Below, one piece after another: positions 393-31,993 of a DNA stretch of 64,000 nt. The notes beneath the pieces were generated by a model. It ran no database searches and was not told where the DNA came from. It worked only from the letters and a program-made list of their open reading frames with translations. Within the stretch, counting starts at the first letter, position 1. Every line of letters starts with the position of its first letter. Made by a program: the position numbers and the translations under genes. Origin of the DNA: an uncultured Alphaproteobacteria bacterium (GTDB lineage Bacteria > Pseudomonadota > Alphaproteobacteria > Rhizobiales > Xanthobacteraceae); NCBI GenBank assembly GCA_963720385.1, contig CAVRFL010000018.1, positions 25,609 to 89,608 on the forward strand. Reading direction: 5' to 3'.

Positions 393-468
393 TGGTGGGC
401 GGTGACGGACTCGAACCGCCGACATCCTGCGTGTAAAGCAGGCGCTCTACCAACTGAGCTAACCGCCC
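393..468 (-). tRNA. tRNA-Val (anticodon TAC)
   Basis: Reverse complement reads GGGCGGTTAGCTCAGTTGGTAGAGCGCCTGCTTTACACGCAGGATGTCGGCGGTTCGAGTCCGTCACCGCCCACCA. It folds as a cloverleaf with anticodon loop TTTACAC, a GTTCGAGTC T-loop and an encoded CCA. Confidence 0.9.
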
Positions 469-2627: not shown

Positions 2628-5072
<2,445 letters not shown>

Positions 5073-5384
5073 GGCCCAAGTTCCTTGTTGTTGTGCCCCT
5101 CGTCCGCAACCCGCTGCGTGCGGCATTGACGGTCGAGTGCCGGGAGGGCCGGGAAGGGAACACGGCGAGTGAGTGGAGGTGCCGTGCGCCAGAGGGATGG
5201 GTACGAAACCCTCCCCGGAAGTGACGCGATCCTTCGTACGATTTCATCGGCACTATTAGGTGGCGATGGCCGGGTGAAGTGTCAAGTAAGCCTGAAAATT
5301 CAGGCAAATAACGGTATCGGGACCGTTCCGGCGGAGGACCGTTGGCGAATCGCAGCTGTGACGCCGAGGGCGTCATGACCGCGC

Positions 5385-6659
<1,275 letters not shown>

Positions 6660-6919
6660 TCCCTGTCTCCATCGGCGCGCAGCCGTGGCCGCGAGCCGGT
6701 CATTCCCACCATAACAAGGGTACCACTAAGAGTCCGTAGCGCGGATGTCACACATCCCTTGGTATTTTGCCCTTATCCTGACCATCTTACTCCTAGCGAA
6801 GCACGGTAGCGCAGCGATAATCAAGAATCTATTAATGATGAAAATTCAGGGTCATGGCAGGTTTTTGACCACCGCCCGGGGAAAATCGGGGAGCCACCGG
6901 CCCCGCCGCCCTTTTGGTA

Positions 6920-7558
6920 TCAGACAACCTTGAGCGCCGCCGGATCGTCGGGCCGCCGGTCGAGGACCTTGTCGACGACGCCCCATTCGACCGCCATCTC
7001 GCCGGTCAGGAAGTAGTCGCGCTCGAGCGCATCCTCGATCTTCTTGAGCGTCTGGCCGGTATGCTTCACGTAAATATCGTTGAGCCGCTTCTTGATGTTC
7101 AGGATCTCCTGGGCGTGCAACATGATGTCGGTCGCCTGCCCCTGAAAACCACCCGAAGGCTGATGCAGCATGATCCGCGCATTGGGGAGCGCGAAGCGCA
7201 TACCCGTCTTTCCGGCGGCGAGCAGCAGCGATCCCATGGACGCCGCCTGACCGACGCAAAGCGTCGAGATCGGCGAACGGATGAACTGCATGGTGTCGTA
7301 GATCGCCAGCCCCGACGTCACAACGCCGCCGGGCGAGTTGATGTACATGGCGATCTCTTTTTTCGGGTTCTCCGCCTCCAGGAACAGGAGCTGCGCCACG
7401 ATCAGCGTCGACATGGTGTCGTCGATCGGGCCCGGGATGAAGATGATGCGCTCCTTCAGAAGCCGCGAGAAGATGTCATAGCGGATCGAGCCGCGCGCGG
7501 TGACCTCCTCGACGCTCGGGATGAAGAAGCTGTTGTAGACGTTCAGCGGGTCCCTCAT
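6920..7558 (-). CDS. clpP: ATP-dependent Clp protease proteolytic subunit ClpP
   Basis: Translation is ClpP-like ([16 protein letters not shown]...[21 protein letters not shown]...[14 protein letters not shown]). ATG at 7558 is preferred over the upstream in-frame extension. Confidence 0.95.
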
Positions 7559-7773
7559 GGGCGCTCTGCCTCGTTCGGTAGCCTCGGATCCTTCGGATGC
7601 CGCTCCAGGACGTCGAGACACTGGGTTATGCAGTCATCACAGATATATGCGAAAGCGCCGGCGACAAGACGCTCCACCTGCTCGGCGCTCCGGCCGCAGA
7701 ACGAGCAGGCGAGCGGCGGCCGGAACAGACGTCCGATCTGGCCCAACGCAGTGCCGGGTCGCAAGTCGATCAT
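7555..7773 (-). CDS. small protein consisting only of a ClpX-type C4 zinc-binding domain
   Basis: 72 aa; ATG at 7773 lies 7 nt after [40 protein letters not shown] parallels the ClpX N-terminus with all four Cys conserved. Its TGA overlaps the clpP ATG (ATGA at 7555-7558). Confidence 0.65.
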
Positions 7774-8065
7774 GTCCGCGCTCCTTATCCACGATTCGTC
7801 CGACCAAAGCATTATGGCAGCAGGCCCTGCGCCGTAAGCCCGGATTCATCCTTAAAGTCTGGTCGTAGTGAGGCGGCGCCCGCACGGCGACGGCGGCCGC
7901 TTGGTGAACATAGGATGGCAACGGCCGCCGTTACACCCCCTACCCTTGGCGTACAGTGGCCTCCGCGCCCGGCGCTTCGGGCACATCCTGCGCTTGCTGG
8001 CCCCAGGTCCGCGGCTTTAAGCTGGTATCGCCGCAAGAAACGCTGGGCAAGAAGCCGAGAGGATC

Positions 8066-8917
8066 ATGGCCATTCGATCTGAGGCGGTGCCGATTGCGTG
8101 CATCGTGATCGTCGGGCTCTTAGCGCTAACCATCGCCTCCGATCACGTATTGGTCCGCGCTCAATCAGCCGATCTCGCGCTTTGTGATCGCGTCGCCGCC
8201 GACCCCGCCGATCCGGACAAGCCGGCGGACGTCAAAGGCACTCGCGATGTCGCCTCGTCCGATATCGCGACAGCGATCAAATATTGCAGGATCGCTGCCG
8301 CCAAATCGCGCCGGGCGCTCTACCAGCTCGGTCGCGCCTATGCGGCCAATCAACAATGGCCGGAAGCCATGGGCGCCTATCGCAGCGCGGCCGACAAGGG
8401 CAGCACGACGGCCATGGTCGAGCTCGGCGTGATGTTCGGGACCGGGACAGGCGTCCCCAAGGACGAAGCCCAGGCGCGCAAGCTGTTCGAGCGCGCCTCC
8501 GAGGCCGGCAATCCCCGCGGCGTCACCAATCTCGCGGCGCTCACGGGTGGCGCACCGTCGGATCCCGTCAGGACGAGAGACCTGCTCGTGAAAACCGCGG
8601 AGACAGGTTCCGCAGAAGCGCAGTATCAGCTCGGATTGATGACTGCCGATGGCCTCGGGGGACCGAGGGACGATGTGGCCGCGCGGGCGTGGTTTGATAA
8701 GGCCGCGACCCAAGGTCATCCCGGGGCGTTGGAGCGGATGGGCGCGTTTGCGCAGAGCGGTCGCGGCGGACCGCAGGATTCAAACGCCGCCAAAGCGTAC
8801 TACGAGCAAGCCGCCGCGCTCGGCAACGAAGATGCCAAGGCTGCTCTTGAGCGCGCAAGATGTCGGTGGGTGATCAAAGACAAGCGTGGGAACGTGGTGA
8901 CCAATCTTTGTTTCTAG
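8066..8917 (+). CDS. Sel1-like (SLR/TPR) repeat protein with an N-terminal signal/anchor
   Basis: Repeated A..Y.LG.MY..G.GVP.D...A..W..KAA..G motifs and a hydrophobic N-terminus. Confidence 0.8.
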   Translation: MAIRSEAVPIACIVIVGLLALTIASDHVLVRAQSADLALCDRVAADPADPDKPADVKGTRDVASSDIATAIKYCRIAAAKSRRALYQLGRAYAANQQWPEAMGAYRSAADKGSTTAMVELGVMFGTGTGVPKDEAQARKLFERASEAGNPRGVTNLAALTGGAPSDPVRTRDLLVKTAETGSAEAQYQLGLMTADGLGGPRDDVAARAWFDKAATQGHPGALERMGAFAQSGRGGPQDSNAAKAYYEQAAALGNEDAKAALERARCRWVIKDKRGNVVTNLCF

Positions 8918-8949: not shown

Positions 8950-10320
8950 TCAAGCCGGGGCTGCCGCTGCAGGCTCGTCGTCGTCTTCCTTGAACAGTTC
9001 GTCCTTGGAGACCGTCTTGTCGGTCACCTTGGCGAGTTCCAGCAGGAAGTCGACCACCTTCTCTTCGTAGATCGGCGCGCGGATACCGGCCATCGCCTGC
9101 GGATTCTTGCGGTAGTAGTCCCAGACTTCCTGCTCGCGACCCGGCACCTGGCGGGCGCGCTCGACAATGGCCCGCGAGATCTCCTCGTCACTGACCTTGA
9201 TACTGTTCTTCTCGCCGATTTCGGCCAGCAGCAGTCCAAGGCGGACACGCCGCTCGGCGATGGCGCGGTACTCCTCCCGCGCCTTCTCCTCGGTAGTGCC
9301 TTCGTCGGCGAACGTACGGTTTTGCCGCTTGAGATCGGCTTCAATGGTGGTCCAGATCGAAGCAAACTCGTCCTCGACCAGCGTCGGCGGCGGCGTGAAC
9401 TTGTGCAGCGCGTCGAGCTGGTCAAGCAGCTTGCGCTTGAGCTTCTGGCGGCTCATGGCGGCGTGATCGCGCGCCAGGCGGTCCTTGACCGCGTCTCTGA
9501 GTTTCTCCAGCGACTCCAGTCCGAGCGACTTGGCGAATTCGTCATCGACGGCGACGGCGGTCGGCGCCTCGATCGCCTTGGCGGTGACGTCGAATTCGGC
9601 TGCCTTGCCGGCCAGCGTCTCGGTCGGATAGGCGGCCGGAAAGGTGACCTTGACCAGGCGCATTTCCCCGACGACGATGCCCACCAGCTGATCTTCAAAG
9701 CCGGGAATGAACTGGTTGGAGCCGACATTCACGGCGACATCGTTGCCGGTTCCGCCGGCAAACGGCGCCCCGTCGATTCGTCCGATGAAGTCGATGACCA
9801 CGCGATCGCCCTGCTCGACCTTGGCCCCCTCGCCTTTGGCCGCGTAGGGCCGGTTCTGCTCGGCGATCTGGTTCAGCGCCGCGTCGATCTCGGCGTCGGC
9901 GACATCGGCGACCAGCCGCTCCAGCTTGATGCCGCCGAAGTCGGCGAGCGTGATCGCCGGCAGCACCTCGAACGACAGCGTGTAGGCGAGATCGGCTTGG
10001 CCGCTGATGACGCGGTCGACCTCGGTCTCCTCGTTCGGAATGGTGACCTTCGGCTCGCGGGCGAGCCGCAGTCCACGCTCCTCGACGATCTGGGCGTTGA
10101 GTTCACGGATGACAGTCTCGACCGTCTCCGCCATCACCGAGCGGCCGTAGACCTTACGCAGGTGCGTCACCGGCACCTTGCCTGGACGGAAGCCGCGCAA
10201 CTGCACGCGATCCTTGAGCTCGGCGAGCCGCCCCGCCACTCGCGCTTCGAGATCGGCGGCCGGAACGGTCACCTGGAATTCGCGTTTGAGACCTTCGGTA
10301 ACTGTTTCTGTGACTTGCAT
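8950..10320 (-). CDS. tig: trigger factor
   Basis: 456 aa beginning [21 protein letters not shown]...RGFRPGKVP, with an FKBP-type middle domain and an acidic C-terminus. Confidence 0.95.
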
Positions 10321-10396: not shown

Positions 10397-10481
10397 TGGT
10401 GCGGGCGGAGGGGCTCGAACCCCCACGTCTTGCGACACGGGAACCTAAATCCCGCGCGTCTACCAATTCCGCCACGCCCGC
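10397..10481 (-). tRNA. tRNA-Leu (anticodon TAG)
   Basis: Reverse complement reads GCGGGCGTGGCGGAATTGGTAGACGCGCGGGATTTAGGTTCCCGTGTCGCAAGACGTGGGGGTTCGAGCCCCTCCGCCCGCACCA. It has a long variable arm and an encoded CCA. Confidence 0.9.
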
Positions 10482-31915: not shown

Positions 31916-31993
31916 CGGAGCGTAGCGCAGCCCGGTTAGCGCACCAGTCTGGGGGACTGGGGGTCGGGAGTTCGAATCTCGCCGCTCCGACCA
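31916..31993 (+). tRNA. tRNA-Pro (anticodon GGG); its 3' 45 nt form attL of the island
   Basis: CGGAGCGTAGCGCAGCCCGGTTAGCGCACCAGTCTGGGGGACTGGGGGTCGGGAGTTCGAATCTCGCCGCTCCGACCA. It folds as a cloverleaf but with a G50-G64 mismatch in the T-stem (G at 31967). Confidence 0.85.
31949..31993 (+). repeat. attL core (45 bp)
   Basis: CTGGGGGACTGGGGGTCGGGAGTTCGAATCTCGCCGCTCCGACCA, matching 42985-43029 at 44 of 45 positions. Confidence 0.85.

Follow-up and report, generated by a model that had tools for sequence, protein, structure and literature searches.

A small gene, here termed zf, was identified between tig and clpP in a 64,000-nucleotide stretch of DNA from an uncultured Alphaproteobacteria bacterium (Xanthobacteraceae; GenBank assembly GCA_963720385.1, contig CAVRFL010000018.1, positions 25,609 to 89,608 of the forward strand), referred to below as the window. 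zf encodes a stand-alone copy of ClpX's zinc-binding domain (ZBD) and lies directly 5' of clpP in all of the related loci examined. We tentatively read its product, at a confidence somewhat below even, as a free ClpX docking domain that is made with ClpP and would compete for, or redirect, ligands of the ClpX N-domain.

7555 to 7773, minus strand, stop codon included: zf, stand-alone ClpX-type zinc-binding-domain protein of 72 residues, 8.0 kDa, isoelectric point (pI) 5.7 (open reading frame, Pfam PF06689, orthologues, dN/dS).

The zf open reading frame (ORF) runs on the minus strand from the ATG at 7773-7771 to the TGA at 7557-7555 and encodes 72 residues. AAGGAG is located at 7786-7781, 7 nt 5' of the ATG. 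This start, the spacing to AAGGAG and an ATGA overlap with clpP had been described in an earlier note on this DNA, and all were confirmed in the sequence. G+C content was highest at third codon positions (0.75), followed by first (0.67) and second positions (0.50), which is the pattern of a coding frame. An alternative reading of 85 residues from the ATG at 7812 was rejected because the upstream frame is not kept (L and P numbers denote related loci and proteins): it contains a stop in L003 and lies in another frame in L006 and L007. The ATG at 7773 is therefore the conserved start.

The ClpX zinc-finger profile proposed as a check in the earlier note (PF06689, zf-C4_ClpX) matched the zf protein significantly, scoring 59 bits (E 4e-16; gathering cut-off 27 bits) over positions 2-38 of the 39 in the profile. 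The alignment with the ClpX zinc-binding domain reported there also held, being gapless to the N-terminus of the local ClpX (5385-6659), encoded 0.9 kb downstream, with 44% identity over 41 residues, and all four Cys ligands of the CxxC...CxxC arrangement (C23, C26, C45 and C48) are kept. No AAA+ module is present in the 72-residue protein, as previously claimed; the ClpX equivalog models NF003745 and TIGR00382 gave 38 and 34 bits, roughly ten times lower than the cut-offs (359 and 371 bits), and matched over profile positions 6-50 only. No IGF-type ClpP-docking loop was found in zf, the sequence of which stops 14 residues past the ZBD helix. SspB, ClpS, Clp_N and Ira domains were likewise not found, the Pfam scan giving PF06689 only and NCBIfam only the ClpX zinc finger.

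Sequence searches returned 31 close relatives of 70-80 residues, and the family profile returned at least 505 clusters of single-domain relatives of 62-112 residues. The subfamily located at clpP consists of single-ZBD proteins of 62-80 residues. Over its full length the window protein can be aligned with 98 members (39-83% identity), and it carries both the N-terminal tail and the VxRLVAG signature; residue counts given below are taken from this 98-sequence family alignment. Nearly all relatives originate from soil metagenomes or metagenome-assembled genomes (MAGs) labelled Xanthobacteraceae, Hyphomicrobiales or Alphaproteobacteria, and the loci examined are all from uncultured MAGs and metagenome contigs. 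In cultured Bradyrhizobium, Rhodopseudomonas or similar genomes tig is presumably followed directly by clpP.

The ratio of non-synonymous to synonymous substitution rates (dN/dS) was calculated by the Nei-Gojobori method over the window and seven close loci. A value of 0.22 was obtained for zf (core 0.19, N-terminal tail 0.29, C-terminal tail 0.62) and of 0.054 for clpP from the same loci, dS being equal for the two genes at ∼0.43. Counted by codon position, 21 (first), 19 (second) and 43 (third) of 72 columns were variable. Judged by these sequence comparisons, zf is a real gene under purifying selection; the earlier note had left this to be checked in relatives, and the ORF was found at the same position in ∼30 related loci.

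7600 to 7713, minus strand: zinc-binding core of zf, residues 21-58, with four Cys ligands, two short strands and a helix at 46-58 (pLDDT 87-91, Foldseek, dN/dS 0.19).

An AlphaFold model was generated from an alignment of the 98 zf relatives and gave a predicted local distance difference test score (pLDDT) of ∼88-91 for residues 21-60. The top Foldseek matches to the model in the Protein Data Bank (PDB) were the ClpX ZBD structures 2ds5-2ds8 and 1ovx, with root-mean-square deviations (rmsd) of 0.9-1.9 Å; for 2ds5-2ds8 the rmsd was 0.9-1.2 Å over 38 residues with a target TM-score of 0.79-0.88. ClpX chains were the only matches when the zf family profile was searched against the PDB. The modelled fold of zf is that of the solved ClpX ZBD. 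The Cys ligands are invariant in the 98 relatives with one exception, in which C26 is replaced by Arg. P0239 (L008 4001-4204) reads CSFRGR, with the second zinc-ligand Cys exchanged for Arg and an otherwise intact ORF, and represents either a sequencing error or a zinc-free variant.

The docking positions of Escherichia coli ClpX correspond to the following zf family positions:

E. coli ClpX F16: position 25, F in 98/98; window F25.
E. coli ClpX A29: position 38, A in 87/98; window A38.
E. coli ClpX Y34: position 43, Y in 46 and H in 50 of 98; window Y43.
E. coli ClpX I46: position 55, V or I in 98/98; window V55.

The hydrophobic helix positions I49, V/L53, V55 and L56 are also kept. Based on these residues and the Cys ligands, zf would be expected to bind zinc and to dimerise. 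In E. coli ClpX, residues F16, A29 and Y34 have an important part in binding SspB (PMC3064785), and the hydrophobic region around F16 and I46 is a common site for trigger factor, SspB, RssB and λO (PMC7804408). CpdR likewise acts via the ClpX ZBD (PMC7804408, PMC5422525).

The genes surrounding zf were assigned as follows:

8950 to 10320, minus strand: tig, trigger factor (ORF; Trigger_N, FKBP_C and Trigger_C domains in orthologous loci).
6920 to 7558, minus strand: clpP, 212 residues (Pfam CLP_protease E 6e-81; NF001368 312 bits).
5385 to 6659, minus strand: clpX, 424 residues, with its own canonical ZBD (NF003745 669 bits).
2628 to 5126, minus strand: lon, last in the cluster (coordinates of the longest ORF, start approximate; Lon domains in orthologous loci).

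Canonically the cluster reads tig-clpP-clpX-lon, with tig and clpP as adjacent genes (PMC7804408). Gene order here is tig-zf-clpP-clpX-lon, and zf was directly 5' of clpP in every locus examined (∼30; L001-L011, L013, L014, L024-L031 and the contexts of P0018 and P0227). To guard against circularity, loci were also entered via ClpP proteins and not via zf, and the zf ORF was present in 9/9 places with enough upstream sequence. In one of these nine, L037, a long-read assembly, zf is uncalled and its ORF is present with a 1-nt deletion near the 3' end, probably an assembly error. P0278, a 298-residue ClpP match considered as a possible zf-ClpP fusion, was rejected as it proved to be an internally duplicated ClpP with no relation to zf.

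7555 to 7558, minus strand: ATGA junction, zf TGA over the clpP ATG (read directly; identical in L002-L007).

A 16-nt overlap between zf and clpP is found in L001 and L041, in which codon 2 of clpP carries a synonymous A-to-C substitution that abolishes the TGA, and an 8-nt overlap in L026-L028 and L030. The two genes are separated by a 3-nt spacer in L009 and L013 and by gaps of 8-30 nt in L008, L010, L011, L024, L029 and L031. Q63* alleles (CAG-to-TAG; L040, L042 and L043) encode a zf of 62 residues that ends right past the ZBD, 39 nt before clpP; they occur in three different metagenome samples beside identical ClpP, and sister contigs carry an 80-residue form. Close linkage to clpP is conserved, and the overlap and the last ∼10-18 residues of zf are not. 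The coupling that the earlier note had deduced from the ATGA thus stands in part: close linkage is general, at distances of −16 to +39 nt, but the exact ATGA is confined to the closest relatives. Co-translation through the overlap, also suggested there, is not essential because the natural Q63* alleles stop 39 nt before clpP.

The core is flanked by two tails:

7714 to 7773, minus strand: basic N-terminal tail of zf, residues 1-20 (column counts in the 98-sequence alignment, dN/dS 0.29, low pLDDT).
7555 to 7599, minus strand: variable C-terminal tail of zf, residues 59-72, plus stop (dN/dS 0.62, length range, Q63* alleles).

The N-terminal tail carries the family motif L-A-R-[IL]-[GA]-R-L-[LF]-R-P, which is not found in ClpX, and has a pI of 11.7 compared with 4.3 for the core. 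Residues 1-12 gave pLDDT values below 50 and, from the model, are likely disordered when alone. The tail (…GRLFRP…) was considered as an SspB-type ClpX-binding tail docked on the ZBD; this stays no more than a lead, as no confident docking was seen in the AlphaFold model, with pLDDT below 50. The ClpX sequence VRKLIAGP(S/T)V(Y/F) is replaced by VxRLVAGASA(H/Y) in the zf family, within which R35 is invariant and is not a ClpX feature. The helix is followed by an E-x-H-[GP]-[GK] motif that is also not in ClpX, with H59 in 92/98 sequences. Past H59 the C-terminal tail is poorly conserved, and the ribosome-binding region of clpP is encoded within it.

The strong ribosome-binding site of zf, and an end at or within tens of bases of the clpP start, point to translation from the same mRNA as ClpP, probably in comparable amounts. 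With the zinc ligands, hydrophobic helix positions and docking patch all retained, zf would most likely act in trans on ClpX ligands. Candidate ligands are adaptors (SspB, RssB and CpdR-type), trigger factor and N-domain-dependent substrates, and zf bound to a ligand would be a competitor of the ClpX hexamer's three ZBD dimers. We infer the stoichiometry arising from co-translation, the partners of zf and the direction of its effect. The decoy idea has a precedent in that purified ZBD added in trans caused dose-dependent inhibition of RssB-mediated σS degradation by ClpXP (PMC7226468, Fig. 1d). Purified ZBD also cross-links to RssB (PMC7226468), and CpdR/RcdA/PopA, SocA and DnaX functions in Caulobacter depend on the N-domain of ClpX (PMC5422525).

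Several observations weigh against a free docking domain that competes for ClpX ligands. The gene is linked to clpP and not to clpX, which fits a ClpP-directed role at least equally well. Half of the family has His at position 43, and mostly Ala is found at the positions of ClpX P31 and V33, so the docking pocket of zf differs from that of ClpX. The N-terminal motif, the invariant R35 and E-x-H-G-G are conserved in the zf family and absent from ClpX; a plain decoy would have no need for them, which suggests a dedicated partner for zf. A pure decoy present at ClpP-like levels would outnumber the ZBDs of ClpX and might block essential adaptor pathways, an outcome that low affinity or instability of zf would avoid. 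Our limited confidence in a simple decoy stems mainly from the flanking motifs and from the division of position 43 between Y and H.

The same flanking motifs, being family-specific, conserved and not in ClpX (dN/dS of the N-terminal tail 0.29), would suit an adaptor or tether, in which the N-terminal tail or the E-x-H-G-G end captures a cargo or partner while the ZBD heterodimerises with, or docks beside, the ZBD of ClpX. The outcome would be delivery of cargo or priming of ClpX, as when an adaptor or trigger factor on one ZBD dimer stimulates degradation. Conservation of the hydrophobic helix positions I49, V/L53, V55 and L56 is consistent with this, as is the finding that ClpXP can be primed via occupancy of one ZBD dimer (PMC7804408). 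zf has no cargo-binding domain, however, its N-terminal tail is predicted to be disordered and undocked on the core, and the ZBDs of ClpX usually pair inside the hexamer, and we regard such a role as unlikely. The invariable coupling to clpP, and a separation of ∼260 nt from clpX, could instead indicate an accessory of ClpP that binds the tetradecamer in the manner of ClpT and affects its assembly, gating or choice of ATPase partner. ClpT1 and ClpT2 are accessory proteins on the ClpP ring (PMC7966870), and the ClpP axial loops and ClpX IGF loop are both remodelled in the clade of the window (see below). An accessory of this kind is given a low probability, since zf has no IGF- or LGF-type ClpP-docking motif, stable binding of a ZBD to ClpP is not known, and zf also occurs beside fully canonical ClpP and ClpX and hence is not tied to the remodelled interface. 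ZBD-like domains are common outside ClpX, in arrays, fusions and small phage proteins, and zf might be a zinc-ribbon dimerisation or protein-binding module with a use unrelated to Clp, its position reflecting shared stress-responsive expression only. The retained ClpX docking residues and the adjacency to clpP in every locus, even in lineages at ∼45-50% protein identity, make this improbable.

The remaining explanations deny the protein a function. The ATGA overlap seen in the window and among its nearest relatives, with the GAGG of clpP placed inside zf 10 nt from the ATG, could describe a leader ORF whose translation merely controls clpP by coupling or re-initiation. This is disfavoured, and we think it very improbable, as the zf peptide is recognisable as a folded domain, is subject to purifying selection and keeps its Cys ligands invariant, the junction varies from −16 to +39 nt with Q63* alleles that uncouple termination from the clpP start, and no significant RNA structure lies over that start (z = 0.68). 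At 64% G+C long spurious ORFs are common in this genome, several of them overlapping the zf region, and the L008 relative has Arg in place of the second Cys; even so, the reading of zf as a chance ORF, or as what is left of a partial clpX duplicate in decay, is effectively refuted by the dN/dS of 0.22 and by hundreds of intact relatives with conserved start, Shine-Dalgarno sequence and synteny.

zf was compared with known systems. It shares with the ClpX ZBD the C4 zinc-ribbon fold (∼1 Å), the CxxC...CxxC ligands and the docking-patch positions F16/A29/Y34/I46, but is a separate polypeptide of 72 residues without linker, AAA+ module or IGF loop, and the basic N-terminal tail and E-x-H-G-G motif belong to zf only. 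The recombinant isolated ClpX ZBD is also a free ZBD polypeptide, which dimerises and binds RssB (PMC7226468). That protein is a laboratory construct, whereas zf is a natural gene of one lineage, fixed in the clpP operon. ClpS is a small Clp modulator whose gene is directly upstream of clpA and co-transcribed with it. Like zf, its gene is small and immediately 5' of that of a Clp component; unlike zf it has an unrelated fold (zf gave no ClpS family match), precedes the gene for the ATPase and not the peptidase, and binds the N-domain of ClpA where zf mimics an N-domain. ClpT1 and ClpT2 resemble the N-domain of their partner ATPase ClpC, released as a stand-alone protein, and follow the same evolutionary logic as zf. 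They have the Clp_N repeat fold and act on the ClpP ring in plant plastids, whereas zf is a zinc ribbon. Plastid ClpT1 and ClpT2 are accessory proteins of the Clp core (PMC7966870).

By analogy with the proposed role of zf, the anti-adaptors IraD, IraM and IraP block adaptor delivery to ClpXP, occupying the adaptor surface that also contacts the ZBD (PMC7226468). They have unrelated folds, are produced in response to particular stresses, target a single adaptor (RssB) and showed no homology to zf in Pfam or NCBIfam. MAG orthologues of zf are labelled "ClpX C4-type zinc finger (protein)" by NCBI and IMG. Members of this database class share the single-domain architecture; the names are automatic with no function attached, and the zf subfamily is set apart by its tig-clpP position and flanking motifs. 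Many other proteins with non-ClpX ZBDs are, unlike zf, tandem arrays or fusions. Neither a functional study of a stand-alone ClpX ZBD nor a description of a gene between tig and clpP was found in searches of the literature. The domain and small Clp modulator genes (ClpS, ClpT, anti-adaptors) are known, and a ZBD that occurs naturally as a free protein, with a fixed place in the clpP operon, appears to be undescribed.

ZBDs beyond this subfamily were recorded. The overall ZBD profile search matched 13,488 representative proteins at E ≤1e-3, ClpX included. Non-ClpX ZBDs are widespread (P0032-P0181), occurring as tandem arrays of 2-6 copies, e.g. P0032 and P0033, and as fusions to tetratricopeptide repeats (P0037, P0094), WD40 (P0055), sigma-54 AAA+ (P0092) and glyoxalase-like (P0130) domains. 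A tblastn search of phages and plasmids gave no close zf relative, the matches being mostly true clpX genes with a few small phage ZBD proteins. Escherichia phage D6 orf93 (L034 1018-1338; MF356679.1 78777-79097) encodes a hypothetical protein of 106 residues with a ZBD-like C-terminal stretch. PHROG matches to the window zf were phrog_6797 (107 residues), phrog_12435 (65 residues) and phrog_5259 (70 residues).

Candidate expression signals around zf were as follows:

7781 to 7798, minus strand: conserved leader CGAATCGTGGATAAGGAG, containing the zf Shine-Dalgarno sequence AAGGAG (7781-7786); near-identical in the window and L001-L008.
7804 to 7815, minus strand: conserved upstream block ATAATGCTTTGG, kept in the window and L001-L006 while flanking bases vary.
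7569 to 7572, minus strand: GAGG, Shine-Dalgarno-like for clpP, inside the zf ORF, 10 nt before the clpP ATG in the window; GAGG-N10-ATG also in L008.

The leader CGAATCGTGGATAAGGAG is recognisable in L024, L026 and L030 though their zf proteins are only ∼50-65% identical. Nucleotide conservation of CGAATCGTGGATAAGGAG exceeds the need of a Shine-Dalgarno sequence and may indicate a regulatory site. ATAATGCTTTGG may be a −10 region. A consensus scan of 6600-8100 gave no sigma-70-like promoter. The region upstream of zf was also inspected by eye against the heat-shock promoter consensus of alphaproteobacteria; only a −10-like block, ATAATG, was conserved, and with conservation limited to this block no claim of a heat-shock promoter is made. 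No terminator-like or promoter-like site was found between zf and clpP, the two terminator-like matches in 6600-8100 being on the wrong strand. In L008 the GAGG-N10-ATG of clpP is retained without a zf/clpP overlap. No stable RNA fold was found at the zf/clpP junction or in the zf leader relative to shuffled sequence (z = 0.68 and 0.49, respectively), and the junction value gives no evidence of structure masking the clpP start.

In the more distant lineages L009, L010, L011, L029 and L031 the tig stop is ∼20-60 nt from the zf start and the conserved leader is absent; in these lineages joint transcription of zf with tig, in addition to clpP, is probable. A Sel1-repeat gene of 283 residues lies on the opposite strand between tig and zf in the window (8066-8917, plus strand). 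It is also found in L001, L002, L004, L006, L032, L036-L038, L040-L042 and L044 and is missing from L003, L005, L007 and the contexts of P0018, a patchy presence that makes it a variable insertion in the cluster. No Rfam family was found at gathering thresholds in the whole window beyond three tRNA genes, one of which is located just upstream of tig, in the interval that separates tig from a YjeF-type gene:

396 to 468, minus strand: tRNA gene (Rfam).
10400 to 10481, minus strand: tRNA gene (Rfam).
31916 to 31990, plus strand: tRNA gene (Rfam).

The N-terminal axial loop of ClpP is usually among the most conserved parts of the protein. In the window, L001-L007 and L013 it is rewritten, with 14 of 21 clade-specific columns in residues 5-26, and the remainder of ClpP is nearly unchanged. 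The IGF-loop region of ClpX is remodelled in the window and L001-L007, with 24 of 48 clade-specific columns in residues ∼258-288; the ZBD and pore-2 loop of ClpX are unchanged. L013 combines the new ClpP loop with a canonical ClpX loop, a mixture which suggests stepwise co-evolution of the ClpX-ClpP interface, and the clade of the window provides a natural case of co-evolving ClpX-ClpP docking surfaces. Since zf is found beside remodelled as well as canonical partners, it is older than the remodelling and independent of it.

The ClpX N-domain is the hub through which SspB, RssB, CpdR/RcdA/PopA, SocA, trigger factor and several substrates reach ClpXP, and in alphaproteobacteria it serves in control of the cell cycle and removal of a toxin. 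To our knowledge, every mode of regulation described so far targets either the adaptors or ClpX itself. A conserved free version of the hub, encoded in the operon, would be a separate control point, a stoichiometric competitor or co-factor produced with the peptidase. In its strictest form, a decoy cut from the protease's own docking domain and hard-wired into the clpP message in one bacterial lineage, the proposal is doubtful. If true, each burst of ClpP synthesis would also yield a competitor or re-director of ClpX N-domain ligands, setting a built-in ratio of adaptor-dependent to adaptor-independent ClpXP proteolysis, and zf would represent a class of regulator undescribed for any bacterial AAA+ protease. 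At 72 residues, the size of a soluble domain, zf is readily testable with synthetic genes, and the lineage that bears it is abundant in soil metagenomes.

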